64,000 nucleotides of DNA. Origin: an uncultured Gammaproteobacteria bacterium. GTDB taxonomy: Bacteria > Pseudomonadota > Gammaproteobacteria > UBA9214. The notes under the pieces were generated by a model. The model saw only the letters and a list, made by a program, of their open reading frames with translations. It was not told the DNA's origin and made no database searches. How positions within the stretch are numbered: the first letter of the stretch is position 1; each line of letters starts with the position of its first letter. Below are positions 1 to 50,830 of the stretch, one piece after another. The stretch covers positions 1-64,000 of the forward strand of contig CAWHCQ010000035.1 in NCBI GenBank assembly GCA_963827755.1, in the 5' to 3' direction. Both the position numbers and the translations under genes were made by a program.

Positions 1-2622
1 AGGTATGTGGTCACCAATACGGGTAACACCGTCCTCAACAACGTGGTGGTGAACGACGACCAGATCGGTCCGATCACCTGCCCGAAGACGACCCTGACAC
101 CCGGCGAATCGATGAACTGCTCGGCTTCCGGTGTTGCCGATGACCTGAACAACACCACGTTCACGACCGTGCCCGGCCTGTGCGGCGGTTTCCCGCAGAC
201 ACCGATGTACGAGAACAAGGGCAAGGCCACGGGTCAGTCGACCACGGGTGAGTTCGTGGAGGACGAGGATCCGAGCCATTACTGCAACCCGCCGATGCCG
301 GCCATCAAGCTGGAGAAGCTGACCAACGGCTTCGACGCAGACACGCGTGACGAATCGTCCACCAGCTACCGGCCCCGAACGGCGATCCGAGCGGTACCGA
401 GCATCAACGCCGGTGCCACGGTGACCTGGACCTACAAGGTGACGAACACGGGCAACACCGTGCTCAACCCGGTAACCGTGAGCGACAACGCCGGTACGCC
501 GGGTGATACGAGCGACGACTTCTGCACGCCGAACGCCGGGCCCTGCGCAGTCGTCATCAACTGCCCGCTCACCGCATTGAATCCGGGCCAGTCGATGAAC
601 TGTACGCGCCCAGCAACCGGCACATGACCTGTCTGTGTTTACCCCGGTCGTTGCCGGGCAGTGTGGTGGCGTGCCGAGTAACCTCTATGAGAATGGCGCG
701 GTCGCCACCGGTACACCGCCAGATGGCGACGGACGTCAGCGACGACGATCCGAGCCATTACTGCAATCCGGGCGTGTGTAACCTGGAGGTCAACAAGACC
801 TGCCTGGTCATCCCGCCGCCGCAGCCCGACGTGGGTACCGGCAGCTGTCAGAAGCCCATCGACGTGCTCAAGCTCGAGTACGCAGGTGGCACGACCATCA
901 CCGGGGTCACCTGGTACGCCGGTGATGTGAGTCCGGGCAACCTGATTCGCTCCGCCACCGCCAATGAGGTCAAAACCCTCAACGGCGGCGGCGTGGTCGA
1001 GTTCAATGGCTTCGAGGTCAACGACTCGCCCAACGATGTGCAGATGGTGACGACCTTCGTCAGCGGCCCCTCGATGACCTCGGAGTTCCACCTGTCCTGC
1101 TCGGATGACGACATGGACGGGCCCGAGGACTGCGGCAAGGTGATTGGTGACGGCAAGGACGATGACCTGCCGGCCAGCTAGCAACATCTGGGTATTCGGC
1201 GGTACGGCCCGCTCTGGATGGTGCGAGGCATCTCCTGCCCGTTGCCGCCAGCACCGCCCGGGATTCCCGACCGCAGACGGCGTGTGAGTTCACACCGCCC
1301 CAGTCGGCCGCCAGCTGCTCCGATATCAAGGACATCACCGCGCTGACGATGATCTGGCAACGGTCCCGACGGCGTCAATATCCAGGTTGACGGACGGTGA
1401 GAGCATCAACGGCATCAACAACGGCGATGTGGTCACGTTCAGCACGCCGAACAAGAACACCTTGAGCTGACGATCACGGGAGCCGTGACCGGGAACTTCG
1501 AAGTTCCATGTCTCGTGCTCCGATGATGAGATGAACGGGCCCGAGGACTGCGGCAACGCCGCAGGGCAACGGCAAGGATGATGACGTCGGGCTTCATCAA
1601 CCAGTGGGCCTTCGAGGGCATGACCGGCGAGAAGGGCGTCATTGACTGCGCGGTGGTCCAGGGCCGCAGCGGAGCCGAGGTGCTCTACGGGATCGAGGTC
1701 AAGAACCTCAATGACGAGCCTGTCACGGTGATCATCACCGATCCCAAGCTGGGCCTGAACCAGACGGAGACCATTGCGGCCAACACTACGTTCCAGCTTG
1801 AAGACCGATCCGACGCTGATCGTTCCCGACGGCAGCAACGTGTTTGTCAATGTCGTCAACGTGAGCGGCCAGACAGTCCGTTGGCGACGCCTGCGATGCC
1901 AGCGCGACGGCCACGGTGACGCGTAATCCACCGCCACCGCCGCCGGTCAGCTGCAGTGACATCAAGGACATCACGGCGCTGAGTATGATCTGGGACGGTC
2001 CGAGTGGTGTGAATATCTCTCCGAGCAGGTGGTGAGCTGTTCAGCAATGTCCAGAACGGCGACCAGATCACGTTCAGTACGCCGAGCTGGGAATGACATT
2101 GATCTGACCCTCAGCGGGGCCGCAAACGGTACCTCCACGTTCCACGTTTCGTGTTCCGATCAGGAGATGAATGGCTCCGAGGACTGCGGCACCAACCAGG
2201 GTAATGGCAAGGACAATGACAGCGGCATCAACGACTGGCTGTTAGACGGCATGACGGGTGAGAAAGGTATGTTCGACTGCGGTCTGTATGTCGGGCCCGG
2301 CGGGACCGGCGGGACCCGATGCCGATGGAGATGGCATCAGTGACCTCACCGATAACTGCACCAACGTGGCCAACCCGGCTCAGGTAGACACTGATGGTGA
2401 CGGTCACGGCAATATCTGCGACGGCGATTTCAACAACTCCTGTGGTCCTGTGGATTTCACAGATCTGGCGGCCTTCAAGACGGCGTTCTTTACCGATAAG
2501 CCCGCTGCACGACCTCAACAGCACTGGCGGTCCTGTGGACTTCACAGATCTGGCTATCTTCAAGGGCCTGTTCTTCCAAGACGCCTGGACCGAGCCCCGT
2601 TGGCTCGCTGTGTAACCCGTAA
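1..2622 (+). CDS. 3' part of a giant secreted repeat protein: DUF11/DUF7507-like Ig repeats, three Cys-rich 'FHVSCSD..MNGxEDCG' repeats, C-terminal TSP3 + dockerin-like module (several frameshifts)
   Basis: ORF pieces 7..627, 624..1181, 1578..1919, 2029..2343 and 2258..2626 join into one reading. Motifs: Y.VTNTGNTVL..V.V.D, TxLxPGxSMxC, DDPSHYCNP (x2), SxFHxSCSD (x3). Corrected end is GSLCNP with TAA at 2620-2622. Start lies upstream of the window. Confidence 0.8.
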
Positions 2623-2629
2623 CTGATCA

Positions 2630-2697
2630 AGCGGAGTCTCTGACATGGGGCTCCGCTCGCATCTTCTGCCGATCGTACTCTGTGTACTGATCGGCAG
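2630..2697 (+). terminator. Two consecutive hairpins after the stop codon
   Basis: AGCGGAGTCTC-tgacat-GGGGCTCCGCT, then CTGCCGATC...GATCGGCAG; no clear U-tract. Confidence 0.35.
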
Positions 2698-3008
2698 CGC
2701 AGATGCCACATATCGGCATTGGGCGGGAAGCGACGGCACCGGTGGCAAAACCAGGCGTAGGCGTAGTCCACTTGGGTTTCGGTGAATAGCATAGGGGGAT
2801 TATGGCGGGTATCCGCTGGAAGCGAACGTCAGCTTTCGCCGCAATCTCGGACATATCGAGATGCGGGACTATCCATTTGGGTCGTTTCCGGTCCTTAAGT
2901 GATTGTTTATATAAGCCAAACATAAAGGTCCGGGTTCGAGCGCAAAGCTGCCGTTCACGGCGCCCCGCCCCCGGCAACCGCGCCAGATTCTCGGGGCAGC
3001 ATGGGGGG

Positions 3009-3082
3009 TGAAAACCTGAAATCCTGAAGATCTGAAATCTGCGGGCGAGTCAGTTGTTTCAGGTTTCCAGTTTTTCAGTTTC
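3009..3082. repeat. Short-period (about 8-9 nt, CTGAAA core) inverted repeat
   Basis: AAACCTGAAATCCTGAAGATCTGAAA ... TTTCAGGTTTCCAGTTTTTCAGTTTC. Confidence 0.55.
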
Positions 3083-3479
3083 CCGGCCCCGGTCGACGCC
3101 CCGAAATCCTGCCCCGACCCGACGCACCCGACATCCCCTCTCCCCGCCCCGGCGACTTTCGACGCATGCAAAAATGCCGACCTCTGCTCCGGAGTGTCAC
3201 GCTCTCCGACGCTTCGGCGTGCCCCCTGCCCGCACTCCAAGTGACCAGCCCCGCTCCGCACACGGCGACTCCGGCGGCACTTCAGTAAAAGTTCGGCCGC
3301 ATAAAAGAGACAACTCGTTGGGCACAATTATTTTTTCAACTATAAAGGGGCCATTTCATGCATCGAATGCTCGGAAAAGTTCAGTCTCCAGTTCGGTCGT
3401 GACAATCAAGAAATAGCGCCGACAGAAAATCGCTTAGAATTCTTAAAGTTTCTGTGCCATAAAAGAAAGTGAGTCTGGT

Positions 3480-3524
3480 ACTGTTAATCACTAGGTCGGC
3501 GGTTCGAGCCCGTCCCGGGGAGCA
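3480..3524 (+). pseudogene. 3' half of tRNA-Asn(GTT); probable integrase att-site duplication
   Basis: ACTGTTAATCACTAGGTCGGCGGTTCGAGCCCGTCCCGGGGAGCA contains the anticodon loop CTGTTAA, T-loop GGTTCGAG and the 3' acceptor strand. No D-arm or 5' acceptor strand upstream. Confidence 0.8.
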
Positions 3525-3606
3525 TCAAGTCCCCTGTGATTCCTGTGGGTTACGATTCATCGTCCGGCGCGGGTGCGCCCTATGGACGGATCAAGAGACC
3601 TACCGC

Positions 3607-5188
3607 TTAATTACAAAGGCCCGCGGCGCTCGGGCCCGGGGTTGTGAAGAACAGGCCCTTGAAGAGAGACAGATCGATGAAGTCCACGGCCCCACCGGTG
3701 CTGTTGAGATCGTGCAAGCGGGCTTTCGGTAAAGAACGCCGTCTTGAAGGCCGCCAGATCTATGAAATCCACAGCACCACAGGAGTTGTTGAAGTCACCG
3801 TCACAGATATTGCCGTGTCCGTCGCCATCGGTATCTTGCTGGCCCGTGTTGTCGACCAGGGTACAGTTGTCGCAGGCATCACCGGCCCCGTCACTGTCGC
3901 TGTTCTCCTGCAGCGGGTTGACGATGAGCGGGCAATTATCGGCTGCATCGGGATCAATAACCGCCGCAAACGGAAAATCGGACGTACTGAACCAGCTGGT
4001 ACCGGCGCTCGAAAAGAAGCCCTGTCCATCGGCATAATCCGGACCAGAGGACAAAACCCAGCGACAGTTGTCCAGCCCCCGCGCCACGATGGCGTAATCA
4101 GTCCCGCCGACCACGCTGGCTGGTGTATCGAAGACAAAACCCACTGCGCCGGAGAAAATTGTCGGCACCTCCGTATCGGCAGTAAACTGTTTCGATGCAA
4201 GGATCGCCCCGTCAGGCTTGCCGGCACCGTCTACGCCCTGGAGTGAAAGCACGAGATCACCTGCGGGACAGTATATTGACAGGCTCACTTGTGTCAGCGA
4301 GCCATCGAATGACACGGGAAAGGTCATCGCCCTGTAGTCATAGGGCGAGCCACTGTTGGGGCCAAACGAGAAGAAGCTCCCGGACAATGAATCGAGGCCA
4401 TAAGTGGCATCTACGCCGGCAGCGTCATAAATGCTATCACCATCGATATCAGAATCGCACAGATCACCCTGGCCGTCGCCGTCAAGATCAAATTGAAGGG
4501 GGTTGGCGGTTGACGGGCAGTTGTCATTTGCCAGGCCTGCGCCATCCCCGTCCAGGTCATAAATGGCGGCCACGCCCTGGATGTCGTCCGCCTGCGGTGT
4601 TTCCGTATCGCCGCTCAGGAACCACATGATTGCACTGCTGTCGCCAGAGTGCTCCAGGCCCAGGCCGTGCCCCAGTTCATGCACGGCAACACGTTTGAAT
4701 TCAGGATCCCCGGTCCATGCGCCTGCATACAAATCCCATTCGTTGTTGTTGTTGAAGATGGTGCCGGTTTTTGAGCGGGTTGTACCCGAGAACCAGTACT
4801 GCTGGATCGCAAGTGTGCTGCCTCCAAACGATGATCCGCAGCTTGTCGTTGCGAATACAACACCACTGCGGGAATCGCTGCTCGGCGGGACGCAGGGATC
4901 AGAGAAACCGCCGCCGGTATTGGCCGTGTATACGAAAGTGGAAAAGGTGGTCCATATCGACAGCGCATCGATATACGCGGCGTCCAGTTGTGCCGTGGTC
5001 GGTCCGCCTGACACTATATTCGGGGGATCGATGCCGGCAGGGTTGGATGCTTCCAGGTCGACATAAACCTCCGTTTCGCCCTCGGCCCAGTAGGTTGAGG
5101 ACAACACATAGGCGCCTGCATTTAAACTGGGCAAGGTGCCTGTTAAAAGCAGGAATGCGCGTACAGCTTGTCGGGGGAAGCCTGTCAT
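3607..5188 (-). CDS. Secreted matrixin-family (M10-like metzincin) metalloprotease with TSP3 repeats, a beta-sandwich domain and C-terminal dockerin-like module
   Basis: Signal peptide; HELGHGLGLEHS zinc motif; Met-turn AIMW; DNCP..NP.Q.D.DGDG.GD.CD repeats. Correcting a 1-nt frameshift near 3715 gives ...KGLFFTTPGPSAAGLCN with stop at 3607. Confidence 0.9.
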
Positions 5189-5887
5189 GGTTTCTTACCG
5201 GTAGCCCCGGGCGTGGCGGCGTTTGACTTCATGATTGCCAGGCGGGATTTGAGGACCTCCTTGAAGCTGGATTTTTCCATCGCATTGCTCAAGGCCTCTT
5301 CACGATTGCCGGTCCAAACGCCCTTTGCCACGCCGTGACTGAATGGCAGGTGAGACAGCTCCGGGGTACCGGGGCCGCCCACACCCATGTTTGCGGGGAA
5401 ATCCAGGTGCATCACCGGGGCGCCCCCCTCGGTGAGAATTCGTTCTATGCCGTAGATATCTTTCTTTACAAGGAAATGTCCCTGCCCCCAGCCGACCAGG
5501 GGATTGATAAGCTGCTTGTCGGGATTTTCAATAAAATAGATGCCATGTTCCCCGACAGCCGGGTAGACCATCGAGCTCACATGCAGGCCTGTGTCATCCA
5601 CGGTTCCACCCAAAAAAGCGAGTGTCACTGTCGGAAACCGGGGTTTCTCCCTTGATGATCTCGTTCACCCTGAAGGTGGTAAAGGTGGTGATTCCGGTTT
5701 TATCCTGATTCCACCTTGCCTCGCTTGAAATGACTTCCCCTTCAAAGATCAGCGCTGCCTCGTCAAGGAGATAATCCATGTCGACCTGCAGCACCGTGGT
5801 GGCGAATACCAGCTTCGGCGCCATGACAAACACGAGCATCGCCGTGACAATGAGTTGAAATTTTCGGTTAATTGCCATAAGAAACAT
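5185..5887 (-). CDS. Secreted OB-fold/TIMP-like protein translationally coupled to the matrixin (frameshift near 5635)
   Basis: ORFs 5594..5887 and 5185..5628 join. Signal peptide, then ATTV..L..A.LIFEGEV...FRVNEIIKG...LGGTV...P.VGE. Stop overlaps the matrixin start (ATGA). Confidence 0.7.
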
Positions 5888-6805
5888 GCTTCCCTTGTCG
5901 TGTACCGTGCCTGCGGCGGACCTGGAGAAATACGAGGGTTACAGGTTGCCGGCGCTGTAAAATCGCAGGTGGCAACCAATGTCTCAAGTATAGGGCAGAT
6001 TTTGTCGTTTTGCGAAGTACGCCCGCGTTATTGGCTATGGCGATTGTCGGCCACAACCTGTGGGTGGCGAATTCCTATTCATGCGGCAATTGGTGTCTGC
6101 ATAAGTCCACCGCAATGAGATTTCCATGAATAGTTGTTGAGTTTTGCGTATGGCGGGATGAACCGGATCCCATCATTGTTAATTTGCATGCTCATTTGAC
6201 CCGGATTTGCATTTTTGGGTGAACCGCCTCAGGCCATGGTGTCCTTCAAGGATTCAAGCAAATAGAAGTTAGCGGTCGGGTCAATGTTTGATGCAAAAGT
6301 GGTTCAAATTTCAGCGCAATTCAACATAGAGGATTATCAGAGCACATTATCTTCCAGTATTAGAAATAAAAATGTGCTCTGGCCGGAGATGGCTAATGGG
6401 CGACTCTCTTTTACGATGAGGGAGCTTTACGATGGGGGAGCGGGTCCGTCAGAAAATCGTCACTTAGCCTGTGCCTGGCTGTCATGAACATAAATAACTT
6501 GTTGTAGAACAGTAGCATATTGATTCGAGAGCGGTAGTTTTCCTCGGGATTTGGTGGTGTCCAAAAAATACGAACAGCGCATCTTACGGCTTTTTATGAA
6601 ACCACTGGTAACTTTGCAAAAGCATGCGACAATAAGGCCATTACAGGAGACACAACACGCGGGTTGGCCTGAATTCTCTTCACGAAAATAACAAAAACAT
6701 GTATGTACGTCGCTGATTGTGAGTACTTTAAGCGACCGGTTATTTGAAAGAAGAGCGATGCGTTAAATCTGTTTTAATTAAATATAATAATCAGGGTTGT
6801 TTCAT

Positions 6806-8183
6806 ATGAATTCCACCTGTCATACAACGCTGGCCAAGCGTGCCGGTACGCTTCCTGGTCTTCTGTTTTTCTTGTTGCTGTCACCGCTCACCCATGCCGC
6901 CGATAGCGATGGTGATGGCCTGGATGACAGTGTCGAAACGAACACCGGTATCTATGTTGATATCAGCGACACCGGTACCGACCCGGGTGACGCAGATACC
7001 GATAATGACACCATTCCCGATGGACTGGATCTGCCCCCGACCCGCAACCCCCTGGTAGCGGACTGGGCGGTGAGTGCGGGTGGTTATCACAGTTGTGCGC
7101 TGGATGACAGCGGCGTGGTGTGCTGGGGTGCCGGGACTACCACAGGTACGTTAATTTTGGACAGAGCATGGTGCCCGACGTTGAGCAATCCGCAGGCGGT
7201 GAGTGCGGGTGCTTATCACAGCTGTGCGCTGGATGACAGCGGCGTGGTGTGCTGGGGTAGACAACGATGATGGCCAGACCACGGTGCCGGCGTTGACCAA
7301 TCCGGTGGCGGTGAGTGCGGGTGAGTTTCACAGCTGTGCGCTGGATGACAGCGGCGTGGTGTGCTGGGGTAGACAACGATGATGGCCAGACCACGGTGCC
7401 GGCGTTGAGCAACCCGGTGGCGGTGAGTGCGGGTGCTTATCACAGCTGTGCGCTGGATGACAGCGGCGTGGTGTGCTGGGGTGCCGGGACCACCAATACG
7501 GTATGGTCATGATTGGACAAAGCATGGTGCCGACGTTGAGCAACCCGGTGGCGGTGAGTGCGGGTGGTTTTCACAGCTGTGCGCTGGATGACAGCGGCGT
7601 GGTGTGCTGGGGTTCCAACGGCTCAATGGCCAGACCACGGTGCCGGCGTTGAGCAACCCGGTGGCGGTGAGTGCGGGTGGTTTTCACAGCTGTGCGCTGG
7701 ATGACAGCGGCGTGGTGTGCTGGGGTTACAACGGTTATGGCCAGAGCACGGTGCCGGCGTTGAGCAACCCGGTGGCGGTGAGTGCGGGTGGTAATCACAG
7801 CTGTGCGCTGGATGACAGCGGCGTGGTGTGCTGGGGTTACAACGGTCAATGGCCAGACCACGGTGCCGGCACTTGCGTTCGATAAAGATCTGGATGGCTT
7901 CACCGATCCGGATGACAACTGTACCCTGGTTGTTAACACGGGCCAGCAAGATACCGATGGCGACGGACACGGCAATATCTGCGATGGCGATTTCAACAAC
8001 TCCTGTGGTGCTGTGGATTTCACAGATCTGGCGGCCTTCAAGACGGCGTTCTTTACCGAAAGCCCGCTTCACGACCTCAACAGCACTGGCGGGCCTGTGG
8101 ACTTCACAGATCTGGCTATCTTCAAGGGCCTGTTCTTCCAGGCCCCCGGACCGAGCCCCGTTGGCTCGCTGTGTAACCCGTAA
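6806..8183 (+). CDS. Secreted RCC1-like 7-bladed beta-propeller protein with N-terminal acidic Ca-binding repeat and C-terminal TSP3 + dockerin-like module (frameshifts in the repeats)
   Basis: Signal peptide ending THA-A; DSDGDGLDD..E...GTDP..ADTD; seven copies of AVSAGxxHSCALDDSGVVCWG; ends GSLCNP at 8183. Confidence 0.85.
7066..7875 (+). repeat. Seven near-identical ~111-130 bp tandem repeats (RCC1 blades)
   Basis: CACAGYTGTGCGCTGGATGACAGCGGCGTGGTGTGCTGGGGT recurs near 7088, 7217, 7329, 7441, 7573, 7685 and 7796. Confidence 0.95.
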
Positions 8184-8396
8184 CTAATAGAGAGATTCAA
8201 TGTATTGGCCGAATGGAAAATCAATGCCCGCGATCCATGGGCCCGATTTTCTCAAGGCACGCTCAAACGCATCGTAGCCCCGCCATTCAATCAGTTCACG
8301 CGCTTCCAGGATGTTGCCATCCAGCCTGCATTCCAGGCACGTGATGGGCTTGCTGCGTTTCGGCCTGCTCGTAAAATCAATGCCGTAGATTTTCAT
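8184..8396 (-). pseudogene. Truncated N-terminal fragment of a DUF429 (RNase H-like nuclease) protein
   Basis: MKIYGIDFTSRP...PWIAGIDFPFGQ ends abruptly about 20 nt from the stop of the RCC1 gene. Confidence 0.7.
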
Positions 8397-8706
8397 GCGC
8401 AAACCCTGGCATGAAGAGACCAATTTATCCACACCCTCCCGGCCGGGCACGCCAGTGACAGTATGGTACGCGCTTGATTCAGACACAGTGGATGCGCAGA
8501 ACGGCAGGAATGCGATCGGTATCGGAAGTAGAACGTACAAGTTGCTGTAATTTCATCTGAACCGGGAAAACCGGCCCGAACAGGTCATTCGGCTGTTTCG
8601 GTTGGCCTCAGGATTTTCGAAGAGAACAGCAATGAAAATCAATCGAAATGGATGGAGCCATCCCGTCGATTTCGGTTCACTTTTCAGGAAAGTATAATCA
8701 TCCTTC

Positions 8707-10102
8707 ATGCATCCTTGTCAGCACAAAAATATCCGGCGTCTGTGCCTTTATAGAAAAATTCTCCTGCCACTGATGCTGTTGCCCTGGCTGACTGGTGGTG
8801 CCGACGCACAGTCAGATACAGGCGTCAAACAACCCGTTTCGTCGGTTTCAATCATTGAAATTCCGGTGCGACTGTCTCTCGACCCACTTACCAAAGCAGC
8901 TGAAAAGACACTCCCGCAGCAGGCAGGTAATTGGCGCACATGGAAGGACTGGCACGGGGTAAAGTCTCAATACCGTGCCTGGCGTGGACCACTCAGCATT
9001 ACTGTCTCGGGTGATGTGTTACTGGTCCAGGCACATATCCGTTACTGGATCAGGGCACGCAAAAAGTTACTGGGTGCAATCAATCTGAAAGGCAGTTGCG
9101 GCATCAATGAACCGCCGCGACAGGCGTTGATTGGTATGCAGGTCCGCCTGGGATGGGGGCCGGACTGGACCGTGAAACCCGAGTTTCACATTCTGCCTAC
9201 CCGGTTTATCGACCGCTGTGAAATGACTATCGCAAATATCGATGTCACACCTCTCGTCGAGAAGGAATTCCGCAAGCAAATGCAGAAAAGCCTGCATGCG
9301 GCGCTTCGGACGCTTGCTCCCGGCATGAATGCAATCCGGAAACAGGCACAGCGAACCTGGTTTTTACTGCAAGAACCGGTAGAACTCGGACAGAACAACT
9401 GGTTTATGTTCAGGCCTGTGGGTGTTGCGCTATCTGGAATAACAGGCCGGGCCAACAACATCGATGCACATCTTGCCGTTGCTTTGCAGCCGGCACTGGT
9501 GACGGGAACTGAACCAGCGGGCAAACCAGTGCCACTACCACTACTTCAACGGTATTATCCCCGTTCTTCCGGGCTGAATCTGCACCTGAGCGTGAACCTG
9601 GATTTTGCAAGTCTCAACCAGAGGTTTTCCGACACCCTTGCCGGACAATCTTTTGACATCCATGGCCAGAAAGTGGGCATCAAAAAGTTAGTCCTCACGG
9701 GCAGTGGTCAGGAAATCGGGGCATGGGTAGAGTTGGCCGGTGAACTCGCCGGGACAATAGAGTTGCGCGCAAGCTTGGTCTATAAAGCTGAAGAACGGGA
9801 GCTGGAATTGCAAGACCTGACGTTTGACTATGACGCTAAAAATTCCAACCATGGCTCTGCTAGAGGAATCGTTTCATGAATACATCCGTCAGGCACTGGA
9901 AAGTGCGGCCAACCAGGCATTGGCACAGTACCTCGCTCTGCTCAGCGAGCGGCTTGAGACAGCCCTGAAGAAAATCATACCGACGGGTGTGTTGCTTGAT
10001 ATGTCCGCTCTGCAGTTACAGTGCCTGCAAATTCATATCGTACAACAAGATATCAGACTGGATGGGGCCGCTACCGGGAGTGCCCGGCTCATGTTGCGCT
10101 GA
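8707..10102 (+). CDS. DUF4403-family secreted protein (frameshift near 9840)
   Basis: ORFs 8707..9879 and 9824..10102 join; signal peptide; S.I.IPVRLSL and C....ANIDVTP motifs. Confidence 0.7.
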
Positions 10103-11155: not shown

Positions 11156-11863
11156 TTATGCCGCTTCCTTCCGGCCGGCGACACCGGCCAGCCCCAAAAG
11201 TCCAGAGCCGAATAGCCAGACAGCTGCTGGAACGGGAACAGACGAGACTGTTATGCTGGCCGAGAATGATCCGTCAAGTGACGCATAATCAAAACCATGC
11301 TGATTAACTGAAAACCAGCTGGAGCCACCATCCAGTGAAGACATGACTTTTCCGGTAAACACACCTGCAATTCCGTCATTGATCATCTTGTCGGGTGTCC
11401 CGCCTCTCTTTGTTCCAAGGTACGGAGCTCCATGCCGTGCATTCCATACAAGAAGATAATCCTTGCCTGCTTGAAGCTCAAAGCTGCTGTGAGCCGATAA
11501 ATCCACCGGGGATCTTGCGGGGTTTGGAAGAATTATTGACGTATCGAATGAGCCGATTAATCCGCCTGGAGCAAGATCAACCCCATGTACACCGGTACTT
11601 TCATACACCCCGAGTTCAAGATATCGGGCTGTGTAGTTATTGGTTGAACCAAAAACAGCGGTAATTTTTTCTACTGTAATGTTTTTTCCACCCACATGAA
11701 AGACAGCCGCAGTAGCCCAGTCATTGCTTGTGGTATTGCTTTGGTCCCCTGCAATCAAACCACCCGTATTGTCAAATGAGGCAAGCGTCGAAACCAATGC
11801 AGCATGCACATTGGTTGACAAAGCGACAGCGGAAGCAATAAAAACTGATTTAAAGAATTTCAT
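11156..11863 (-). CDS. VPxPA-type PEP-CTERM (exosortase-sorted) surface protein
   Basis: Signal peptide (VHA-A); C-terminal VPVPAAVWLFGSGLLGLAGVAGRK (motif, TM helix, basic tail). Confidence 0.9.
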   Translation of the reverse strand: MKFFKSVFIASAVALSTNVHAALVSTLASFDNTGGLIAGDQSNTTSNDWATAAVFHVGGKNITVEKITAVFGSTNNYTARYLELGVYESTGVHGVDLAPGGLIGSFDTSIILPNPARSPVDLSAHSSFELQAGKDYLLVWNARHGAPYLGTKRGGTPDKMINDGIAGVFTGKVMSSLDGGSSWFSVNQHGFDYASLDGSFSASITVSSVPVPAAVWLFGSGLLGLAGVAGRKEAA

Positions 11864-36960: not shown

Positions 36961-38125
36961 CTACAGCGCCCTGACATTGAGCACGCCATCAATCCGTGCC
37001 ATCTGTTCCAGGCAGGACGGTTTTACTTCTGTGTCCACGTCAACCAGTGTATAGGCCAGTTCGCCGCGCGACTTGTTCAGCATGTCGAGAATATTCAGGC
37101 CGGCATCGGCTATGCAGGTGGATATCTGCCCGAGCATGTTCGGCACGTTCTCGTTGACAATCGCCAGGCGGTAACCTTCACTACGCGGCATGATCGTTTC
37201 AGGAAAATTGACCGAGTTCCTGACATTGCCGTTTTCCAGGAAATCCCGTACTTCCTCGGCCACCATGACAGCACAGTTTTCCTCGGCCTGCGCAGTCGAC
37301 GCCCCCAGGTGCGGCAAGGTGATCACACGCGGGTGGTTCTTCAGCAGGTTGCTGGGAAAATCGCAAACATAGGCATACACCTTGCCCGCGTCGATTGCCG
37401 CCACGACGGCGGCATCATCGACAACACCGTTACGCGAAAAATTCAGGATCACGGCATTCTTCTTGATTATTTTCAAGCCGTTCTGCATTGATCATATTGC
37501 GCGTCGCGTCAACCAGCGGCACGTGAAACGTCACGTAATCCACTTTCGCCAGCAGTTCCTCGATAGAGGCAGCCTGGATCACCTGGGAAGACATCTCCCA
37601 GGCGCGCCGCACGGTAATATCGGGATCATAGCCGACCACGTTCATGCCCTGTGCGAGCGCGCCATTGGCCACCTGCACGCCGATCGCGCCGAGACCGACC
37701 ACGCCCAGCGTCTTGCCGGGCAGTTCAAAACCGACAAACTGTTTTTTTCCGGCCTCAACGGCCTTGTGTATGGCCTCGTCGTCACCCTCCAGGGAACGCG
37801 CAAAATCCCAGGCCTGGCAAATATTGCGCGAAGCAATCAGCATGCCGGCGATCACCAGCTCCTTGACTGCATTGGCGTTGGCTCCCGGCGCATTGAAAAC
37901 CGGTATGCCCGCCTTGCTCATCACGGCAACCGGGATATTGTTGACGCCCGCACCGGCGCGGCCAATTGCCTTGACCGTTGGCGGCACCTTCATGTCATGC
38001 ATGTTGTAGGAGCGCAGCAGGATGGCGTCCGGGTGTTGCATCTCGGAAGCCACTTCATAGGCGTCACGCGGGAAATGCTCCAGCCCGACCGGGGAAATAT
38101 TATTCAGTGTGAGGATTTTTTGCAT
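36961..38125 (-). CDS. serA: D-3-phosphoglycerate dehydrogenase (frameshift near 37485)
   Basis: ORFs 37430..38125 and 36961..37488 join; RAGAGVNNIP; GLGAIG; PHLGAST; ACT domain. Confidence 0.92.
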
Positions 38126-50220: not shown

Positions 50221-50830
50221 GTTGATGCGCCTTGCAGGCGGGTTTTATTTGGATGCGGGCTCTCGCGCCCGCCGGCGAGGTACTTTTCTTTGCTCCGCCA
50301 AAGAAAACGTATCCAAAAGAAAGGCGACCCGGAGGTGCAGCCCGAATACTCATTTTCAATGAGTATTCGGGTTCCCTGCGCTTCTCGCGAAAACCGGCGC
50401 ATGCGCAACTCGCAATCTCGCTGCGCTCGAAAGCTCAAACAGGGCGCATGCTTCATCCGGTTTTCACTGCGATGCTCGGCTGCGCCTACGGGAGGGGTAG
50501 ATCAACCCCCATACTCGGCGAGTATGGGGGTTTGATCTACCCCTCCCGTAGCACTCACCGAGTACCGCAGCCAATCCGGGGAATAGCCGCGCACCCTGTC
50601 TGAGCTTTCGAGCGCAGCGAGATTGCGAGTTGTGCGCGGCCCCCGGATTGGCGAGGAACGCAGGGGACCGGATTAGGCAAGACAGCGTTGCTGTCTTGCC
50701 TAATACGGTGAGTGCTCCGGGTGCCCTTCTCTTTGGGTACTTTCTCTTGGGCAAGCAAGAGAAAGTACCTCGCCGCGCGGGCGCGAAAGCCCGCATCCAA
50801 ATAAAACCAGCGCCTGCAAGGCGCCCCAAC
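50221..50830. repeat. ~600-bp imperfect nested palindrome (two inverted ~300-bp structured units)
   Basis: Ends GCGCCTTGCAGGCG..GGTTTTATTTGGATGCGGGCT and AGCCCGCATCCAAATAAAACCAGCGCCTGCAAGGCGC; centre CCCCCATACTCG-G-CGAGTATGGGGG near 50518. Confidence 0.9.

Follow-up and report, generated by a model that had tools for sequence, protein, structure and literature searches.

A TSP3-dockerin composite tag on diverse predicted secreted proteins of uncultured Gammaproteobacteria, with a candidate exosortase-anchored cohesin as its putative partner

Dockerin-like and cohesin-like modules have been catalogued outside cellulosomes for years, and non-cellulosomal modules of both kinds were reportedly the subject of Peer et al. 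in 2009. The present analysis concerns one such module, a tag of about 90 residues that closes three unrelated genes at the start of a 64,000-nucleotide (64-kb) stretch of contig CAWHCQ010000035.1 from an uncultured gammaproteobacterium (hereafter, the window). Profile comparisons show the tag to be a composite of a TSP3 repeat with a dockerin and, as judged from sequence, a new subtype within the dockerin family, while cohesin genes predicted beside tag genes in related genomes point to a putative protein-display system in Gram-negative bacteria.

With the type I dockerins of the cellulosome (PF00404; structures 2y3n_B, 2mte_A, 1daq_A and 2vn5_B) the tag has in common a size of approximately 70 residues, two segments made of a Ca loop and a helix, and Asp residues at the first and last loop positions, as well as the usual C-terminal place on secreted enzymes, the large number of copies per genome and the presence of cohesin genes in the genomes of the relatives. 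However, the host is a Gram-negative gammaproteobacterium that does not look cellulolytic, the loops of the window tag have 13 residues rather than 12, the tag is always fused to a TSP3 repeat with the last Asp residues of the latter running into loop 1, and its cargo consists mostly of proteases, adhesin-like repeat proteins and oxidases instead of cellulases. Furthermore, the non-covalent clasp reported for the cellulosomal modules (PMC3821032) is replaced in the tag by a PGPS motif together with two Cys residues that covary, and the window copy lies below the Pfam threshold.

Among bacteria without cellulosomes, the gammaproteobacterium Saccharophagus degradans has TSP3 repeats on secreted glucanases along with two dockerin-like and six cohesin-like open reading frames (ORFs), the function of which is stated to be untested (PMC2386152). 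The likeness to these and other non-cellulosomal modules is limited to the occurrence of dockerin- and cohesin-like modules in the absence of a cellulosome, whereas the tag is a defined TSP3 composite, found on many proteins per genome and with a specific candidate partner encoded next door. In a metagenome-assembled genome of the Cloacimonadota 'Ca. Stygibacter', dockerin-bearing enzymes have been proposed to sit on a 3755-residue scaffoldin (PMC8542988); C-terminal dockerins on peptidases and glycosidases and a cohesin protein on the own cell surface are common features, but that scaffoldin contains several cohesins and, as anchor, a C-terminal domain that is conserved, in contrast to the candidate receptor of the present system, with about 190 residues, one cohesin and a VPLPA/PEP-CTERM anchor. 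Giant proteins of Omnitrophota combine dockerin and TSP3 within one protein, as the tag does, according to bioRxiv 10.1101/2023.11.21.568195.

A further comparison is that with PEP-CTERM/exosortase surface proteins (TIGR03370), the anchor of which is found on the candidate receptor (31 of 35 family members) and on a neighbouring protein in the window, but not on the tag itself. In a literature search with a coverage outside which approximately 1.7 million PubMed Central (PMC) articles and most subscription journals fall, PEP-CTERM never appeared together with dockerin or cohesin, and exosortase and dockerin co-occurred in one paper, without being connected there. As far as the literature was searched, a single-cohesin receptor with an exosortase anchor would be an undescribed variant of the cohesin-dockerin principle.

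Architecture and distribution of the tag

The module starts with one TSP3 repeat (DxDxDGxxDxxDNC...Q.DTDGDGxGNxCD), which runs straight into a divergent type-I-like dockerin formed by two loop-helix repeats, VDFTDLAAFKTAFF and VDFTDLAIFKGLFF, and it ends with a PGPS motif, which is conserved, and a Cys in the tail. The pair of tandem segments that defines dockerins, of about 22 residues and with a Ca loop and a helix in each, is present, and the two halves are recognizable as an internal direct repeat also in the DNA (2413-2500 / 2498-2585 and 7976-8063 / 8060-8147, 61% identity). When the window tag is aligned with 40 relatives (41 members), the loop residues D37, D49 and D77 are invariant and D65 nearly so, each of the D37..D49 and D65..D77 loops being followed by LAxFK..FF. 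The TSP3 motif is nearly invariant and is the best-conserved part of the family, its final CD.D merging into loop 1.

When compared with solved structures, the profile built on this alignment found the TSP3 repeats of COMP and thrombospondin (best, 3fby_A, E = 4.8e-44) and, at positions 90-148, more than 20 solved dockerin chains at E<0.01 (2y3n_B, 1.3e-7; 2mte_A, 2.7e-7; 1daq_A, 3e-7; 2vn5_B, 9.1e-7). Of its members, 37/41 match Pfam TSP_3 (PF02412), and, at E<=0.01, 23/41 match Dockerin_1 (PF00404) and 20/41 the NCBIfam model dockerin_GC (NF041540; best, 1.2e-6); a relative at L003:5056-6291 reaches 35.0 bits with Dockerin_1, the cut-off of which is 22.9. The TSP_3 cut-off of 25 bits is passed by the ORF containing copy 1 of the window tag (33 bits), with copy 3 taken alone at 17.1 bits. 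The earlier note on this DNA, made from the sequence without database searches, had taken the tag for a dockerin relative with one additional residue per loop, and both points were borne out: instead of the canonical 12 residues the window copies have 13 in both loops (DFNNSCGAVDFTD and DLNSTGGPVDFTD). Such longer spacers are found in only 29 of 182 family domains (120 canonical, 33 unparsed) and mark a subtype.

The same note had suggested that two Cys residues could form a clasp, and a census that covered 247 of 276 tags (29 unparsed) supports it. A Cys in loop 1 together with one in the tail was found in 124 tags, a loop Cys only in one, tail Cys only in 18 (15 of them with two tail Cys) and neither in 104. 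The covariation (Fisher p 3.6e-49, uncorrected for ancestry) supports a disulfide clasp that would be formed by the loop-1 Cys and a single tail Cys.

The extent of the family was estimated with an exhaustive search that made use of the 70-residue dockerin part of the tag. It yielded 1787 cluster representatives at E<=0.001 (78 at 1e-10), and species-representative genomes contain at least 559 tag loci (559 of the 626 candidate stretches encode a relative), which disposes of the initial idea of a tag private to this genome. A tblastn search of 72,556 plasmids with the tag found no match. The best 78 loci, from 29 assemblies, were surveyed and contain 94 tag ORFs and 461 other ORFs. Their hosts are nearly all uncultured Gammaproteobacteria (labelled Sulfuricaulis, Thiogranum, Thiotrichales or Thiohalobacteraceae); Myxococcota, Deltaproteobacteria and Deferrisomatales account for a few. 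A single assembly contributes as many as 12 of the 78 loci. Identity to the window tag does not exceed 60% in any of these loci, the closest relatives (71-79% in the best local alignment) being present only among metagenome proteins. With a stricter score cut-off a tag gene was retained in 74 loci, 15 of which have two to four, like the window. The gene arrangements observed include four tag genes at L019:1297-11939, three tag genes around one cohesin gene at L003:1570-8049, and, at L012:741-6285, three PEP-CTERM genes, of which one is CHRD and one cohesin, with two tag genes after them.

The cargo was tabulated for 33 database matches and for 65 of the 94 tag ORFs of the loci, scanned against Pfam. 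It comprises peptidases (matrixin, M64, M14, M19, S8 and trypsin-like), glycosidases and related enzymes (GH16, GH3, apiosidase-like), multicopper (Cu-oxidase) and galactose-oxidase-like oxidases, CotH with LTD, LTD with a nuclease, and adhesin-like repeats (FG-GAP, DUF11/DUF7507, invasin D3, PKD, Big_9, sortilin/BNR), with 18 of the 65 scanned ORFs lacking a Pfam family at E<=1e-6. The diversity of cargo, which had been proposed from the window only, is a property of the family, and the DUF11/DUF7507 and matrixin carrier types of the window both recur in it. A crude test for a hydrophobic N-terminus was positive for 29/36 tag ORFs and 102/195 others, a discrimination so poor that it is not used as evidence. 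Taken together, the survey shows the tag to be a mobile domain on many different proteins of uncultured Gammaproteobacteria predicted to be Sec-secreted.

With respect to placement, 148 of 182 domains are C-terminal (no more than 12 residues from the end), 16 are N-terminal, just after the signal peptide, and 18 are internal (N-terminal or internal examples are P0005, P0010, P0013, P0023 and P0017); the corresponding figures for the 94 ORFs of the loci are 83, 6 and 5. The tag is not confined to the C-terminus, 34/182 domains being found elsewhere. The prevalence of the C-terminal position, along with the conservation of the short tail past PGPS, could be taken to indicate a C-terminal export or sorting signal, perhaps cleaved, like PEP-CTERM, the C-terminal domain (CTD) of the type IX secretion system (T9SS) or LPXTG. 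Such a role is very improbable: N-terminal and internal placements identify the tag as a domain rather than a terminal signal, its end (PGPSPVGSLCNP) has neither a hydrophobic helix nor a basic tail, its homologues are folded Ca-binding domains, and the carriers have signal-peptide-like N-termini.

Finally, tags from one assembly are more alike than tags from different assemblies in the dockerin part (0.565 versus 0.502, a difference that none of 2000 permutations reaches, uncorrected for ancestry), whereas in the TSP3 part the likeness is not raised (0.597 versus 0.594).

Cohesin-like proteins encoded beside tag genes

Clustering of the 461 non-tag ORFs gave, as one of the two largest neighbour families (seven loci each), a protein of about 190 residues in which a signal peptide is combined with a domain of about 140 residues and a VPLPA/PEP-CTERM anchor. 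A hidden Markov model (HMM) of this cohesin-like family, run over the 78 loci, detected the domain in 10 loci and 10 of the 29 assemblies, one of the loci (L022) containing a fusion to the tag, as do the proteins P0017 and P0066. In seven loci the cohesin gene is separate, on the same strand and at most 172 nt from the tag gene, usually directly downstream, and in L062 the two genes are divergent.

The profile of an alignment of 35 family members matched solved cohesins (5g5d_A, 3l8q_A, 1tyj_A, 6kg8_A, 2y3n_A and 6kgc_A) with E values from 9.2e-5, obtained with 5g5d_A, to 8.7e-4, and 18 of its 20 matches at E<=10 are cohesin chains. Pfam Cohesin (PF00963) recognizes 10/35 members at E<=1 (best, 5.2e-7), and the member from locus L011 scores 19.1 bits, below the cut-off. 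The protein encoded at L070:1066-1635, directly after a tag gene, reaches 24.8 against a cut-off of 24.1 and aligns with the family in hhalign at 95.9% probability. The Atlas model of the L011 protein (P0178; pTM 0.73) has structural neighbours with TM values of 0.77-0.83 that are mostly cohesin clusters, one of them a cluster with PEP-CTERM plus cohesin. On the strength of profile and model, the 140-residue domain is identified as a cohesin. The anchor, assigned as VPLPA-CTERM (TIGR03370; PEP-CTERM, PF07589), scores 31.4 against 25.35 in the L011 member; it is the only part of these proteins that NCBIfam recognizes, and NCBI names them 'VPLPA-CTERM sorting domain-containing proteins'.

No exosortase gene was found among the 48 ORFs of the ten cohesin loci. 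Scoring of candidates for longer, multi-cohesin relatives returned nine proteins that cover only 9-27% of the query, mostly round the anchor, a weak result as it is based on just 8000 scored candidates. Among the other recurrent neighbours, an ammonium-transporter-GGDEF-EAL fusion (1016 residues, at L013:7250-10300 and in six other loci), an ABC transporter (four loci) and GspH (four members in three loci) were considered as partners and rejected, as they look like synteny of related assemblies, which is the probable explanation for the fusion protein too.

The window itself encodes a secreted protein with the same type of anchor as the cohesins (table 1), which indicates that its genome has an exosortase-type sorting system. 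This protein was rejected as a receptor, since hhalign matches it to the cohesin family in the 34-residue anchor only. It gives 28.4 bits, below the cut-off, with the flocculation protein PepA. Elsewhere, PEP-CTERM proteins are frequent near tag genes (14 ORFs in the 78 loci by a motif screen).

The three carriers in the window and their reading frames

The features of the window on which the analysis is based are collected in table 1. The tags, of approximately 270-300 nt each, were delimited with a repeat finder, which gave direct repeats between copies 1 and 3 (2317-2496 / 7880-8059, 81%; 2498-2585 / 8060-8147, 94%; 2579-2627 / 8140-8188, 92%) and inverted repeats between copies 2 and 3 (3716-3871 / 7914-8069, 95%; 3619-3714 / 8070-8165, 81%), and with a three-way alignment; both methods place the copies where the earlier note had seen them. 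An HMM of the tag, run on the six-frame translation of the 64 kb, found these three and the ordinary TSP3 repeats within the matrixin, and no fourth copy.

Table 1. Positions of the tag copies, of the genes that carry them and of the anchored neighbour in the window
Feature	Positions	Strand	Description
Giant repeat protein, 3' part	1..2622, open at window 5' end	+	DUF7507/DUF11 repeats and a thrice-repeated Cys-rich module; carries copy 1
Tag copy 1	2318..2622	+	TSP3 repeat, two dockerin loop-helix repeats, PGPS..LCNP, stop 2620-2622; ends the giant repeat protein
Tag copy 2	3607..3871	-	From DNCT to the corrected-frame stop 3607-3609 (...PGPSAAGLCN*); ends the matrixin
Matrixin (peptidase M10)	3607..5188	-	Internal TSP3 repeats; carries copy 2
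RCC1-repeat (beta-propeller) gene	6797..8183	+	Signal-peptide-like N-terminus; carries copy 3
Tag copy 3	7887..8183	+	Single frame, stop 8181-8183; ends the RCC1 gene
VPLPA/PEP-CTERM-anchored secreted protein	11156..11863	-	3 kb from the RCC1 tag gene; not cohesin-like

From DNCT to the last codon, copies 1 and 3 are identical at 243/267 nt, with 11 synonymous and 7 nonsynonymous codon differences and two additional single bases in copy 1; copies 2 and 3 at 227/255 nt (10 synonymous and 11 nonsynonymous codons, one additional base); and copies 1 and 2 at 212/255 nt (18 synonymous and 15 nonsynonymous codons). The initial estimate that copies 1 and 3 differ at about 11 of some 230 nt is adequate if restricted to the 3' two thirds, where 94/96, 94/99 and 15/15 nt are identical, but not for the TSP3 part (40/57). 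A few bases beyond the stop codon the likeness ends, and it does not extend upstream of the tags (33/71, 30/71 and 27/71 nt). Copy 3 has a mosaic structure: the TSP3 part corresponds to that of copy 2 (54/57 nt, versus the 40/57 of copy 1), while its repeat 2 with PGPS corresponds to that of copy 1 (94/99 nt, versus 81/99 for copy 2), as does its tail. Such a pattern is the trace of recombination or gene conversion, by which the three window copies are kept alike.

Only copy 3 is in a single intact frame. Copy 1 spans three frames, by virtue of extra bases at two places, one near 2497 and one within 2578-2584, and in copy 2 one extra base at 3715 shifts the frame; the three indels lie outside homopolymer runs. 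The shared peptide that had been quoted for all three copies is thus real as it stands in copy 3, and is spliced across frames in copies 1 and 2. The carriers are affected as well. At least nine frame switches are needed to read through the giant fragment (1-2619), five, in the repeat linkers, for the RCC1 gene and one for the matrixin, the ORF of which, as it stands, covers 3611-5188 (525 residues; 36.2 bits with Pfam TSP_3) and leaves the tail out of frame. The same computation gave no switch for gyrA, glgP, recQ, rpsA and aroA.

Past every break, the next frame carries the conserved protein on to the shared stop codon, and neither in-frame stops nor nonsense substitutions were seen within the conserved stretches of the carriers. 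An orthologue of the matrixin (79% identity over 495 residues) keeps its frame exactly where the window shifts. Other genes of the window look split, too: the two successive parts of the DUF4403 gene at 8707-10102 (+) align with positions 2-346 and 344-423 of the Pfam profile, those of the 2-hydroxyacid dehydrogenase gene at 36961-38125 (-) with profile positions 13-117 and 114-178, and a pair of small secreted ORFs without a Pfam family (5185-5887, -), directly upstream of the matrixin, gives the same impression. These cases suggest indel errors across the contig, at a density much lower than that in 1-8200. Among the closest metagenome relatives, P0005, P0010 and P0023 appear, by eye, to have tails or internal stretches out of frame with respect to P0013, so that breaks of this type seem to be present in related assemblies too.

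From the continuation of the frames to the shared stops, the lack of nonsense changes, the in-frame matrixin orthologue and the other split genes, the most likely origin of the breaks is in indel errors of the consensus, within an island that varies between strains. Very recent decay is retained as the alternative, given that breaks are far denser in 1-8200 than in other parts of the window and that the indels of the tags are outside homopolymers. In its full form, this alternative states that the three genes are dead, positions 1-8200 being a decaying pseudogene island and the tag a remnant with no present function. The contrast between the break counts of the carriers and those of the five long housekeeping genes fits it, and so do the position of the tag indels and the presence of one extra linker base (ctggggtAgacaacgatg) in two adjacent RCC1 repeats (7158-7269 and 7270-7381); this base reflects either the duplication of a real lesion or a systematic consensus error. 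Dead genes are nevertheless unlikely, as the conserved proteins continue through each break without in-frame stops, synonymous changes are over-represented between copies (11 versus 7, copy 1 versus copy 3), and the other split genes and the out-of-frame appearance of the three metagenome relatives are what assembly indel errors would produce.

Some further properties of the window were recorded. The RCC1 gene contains seven tandem repeats at 7029-7847 (+), with periods of 129, 112, 112, 131, 113 and 111 nt and up to 97% DNA identity. The Cys-rich module of the giant protein (FH[LV]SCSD..M.G.EDCG, then GNGKD.D) occurs at 1077-1138, 1495-1556 and 2131-2192 (+), with spacings of 418 and 636 nt, and has no Pfam match. 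Nested inverted repeats at 50403-50635, flanked by an SDR gene and a thioredoxin-like gene, have 45-nt arms that are 93% complementary and enclose 44-nt arms that are 80% complementary. Rfam gave no match anywhere in the window, these repeats included, and scans for promoters and terminators gave nothing decisive.

Docking onto an anchored cohesin and its implications

Calcium-dependent docking of the tagged secreted cargo onto the exosortase-anchored candidate cohesin is considered the best explanation of these observations and, by a narrow measure, a probable one. The cargo would be exported, the tag would then fold around Ca2+, and its dockerin part would dock onto the small cohesin held at the cell surface by the VPLPA/PEP-CTERM (exosortase) anchor, so that proteases, glycosidases, oxidases and adhesin-like repeat proteins would be kept on the cell or in its matrix. 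The near-duplicate helices, the same-assembly likeness of the dockerin part and the mosaic structure of copy 3 agree with the notion of a genome-specific partner that recognizes the tag. Of the alternatives that the earlier note had left side by side, a common scaffold or receptor is made plausible by the cohesin genes that lie beside tag genes in relatives, and an export or sorting signal is disfavoured by the tags that are not C-terminal.

Several observations weigh against docking. The HMM of the cohesin family found no cohesin-like sequence in the 64 kb, the only part of this genome that the analysis covered, in agreement with what had been stated at the outset, and a sensitive six-frame search of the gaps next to the tag genes at 2560-3680, 5800-6850 and 8150-8760 found no remnant of one (all E>3). 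Within 6 kb of the tags, no cohesin was found in 68 of the 78 loci and in 19 of the 29 assemblies, and every tag that is adjacent to a cohesin has loops of canonical length, none belonging to the longer-loop subtype of the window. Copy 3 has no Pfam Dockerin_1 match at E<=10 and reaches only 16.7 bits (E 0.0072) with NF041540, for which the cut-off is 29. Furthermore, the present sequence leaves two of the three tags out of frame, and likewise two of the three carriers.

The scarcity of cohesins near the tags, along with the superior conservation of the TSP3 part, is in keeping with a different role, in which the tag would have no protein partner in this organism and would be a Ca-dependent folding, stabilizing or matrix-binding element, the acidic TSP3 and EF-hand loops forming bridges through Ca2+ to anionic exopolysaccharide or to the outer membrane; the same may hold for many dockerin-like modules in genomes without cohesins. 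According to a review (PMC5244752), it is not known what cohesin and dockerin modules do outside cellulosomes, which leaves room for such a role. It is, however, improbable in view of the cohesin genes that adjoin tag genes (on the same strand in seven loci, divergently in one) or are fused to the tag in three proteins, and of the internal duplication of the two helices and the same-assembly likeness of the dockerin part only, which fit partner recognition.

Docking onto an anchored cohesin can be formulated in a wider and more tentative manner, the probability of which falls somewhat short of even: uncultured sulfur-cycle Gammaproteobacteria, and some Myxococcota, may have an exosortase-dependent display system in which a single cohesin in a protein of about 190 residues captures dozens of secreted proteins through the disulfide-clasped TSP3-dockerin tag, with the tags of one genome homogenized by gene conversion to fit its cohesin.

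The tag is now defined and seen to be abundant, a specific candidate for its receptor is encoded in its neighbourhood, and the anchor is of a known surface type; the question of docking is directly accessible with two small recombinant domains. For annotation, the tag-bearing proteins are dockerin proteins that escape the present thresholds of Pfam and NCBIfam, and the small 'VPLPA-CTERM' proteins beside them are cohesins that likewise escape them. Should docking be confirmed, a compact, disulfide-stabilized cohesin-dockerin pair would be at hand for protein display, non-cellulosomal dockerins of Gram-negative bacteria would acquire a concrete function, and the manner in which Gram-negative bacteria of the environment retain their secreted enzymes and adhesins at the surface would be described.

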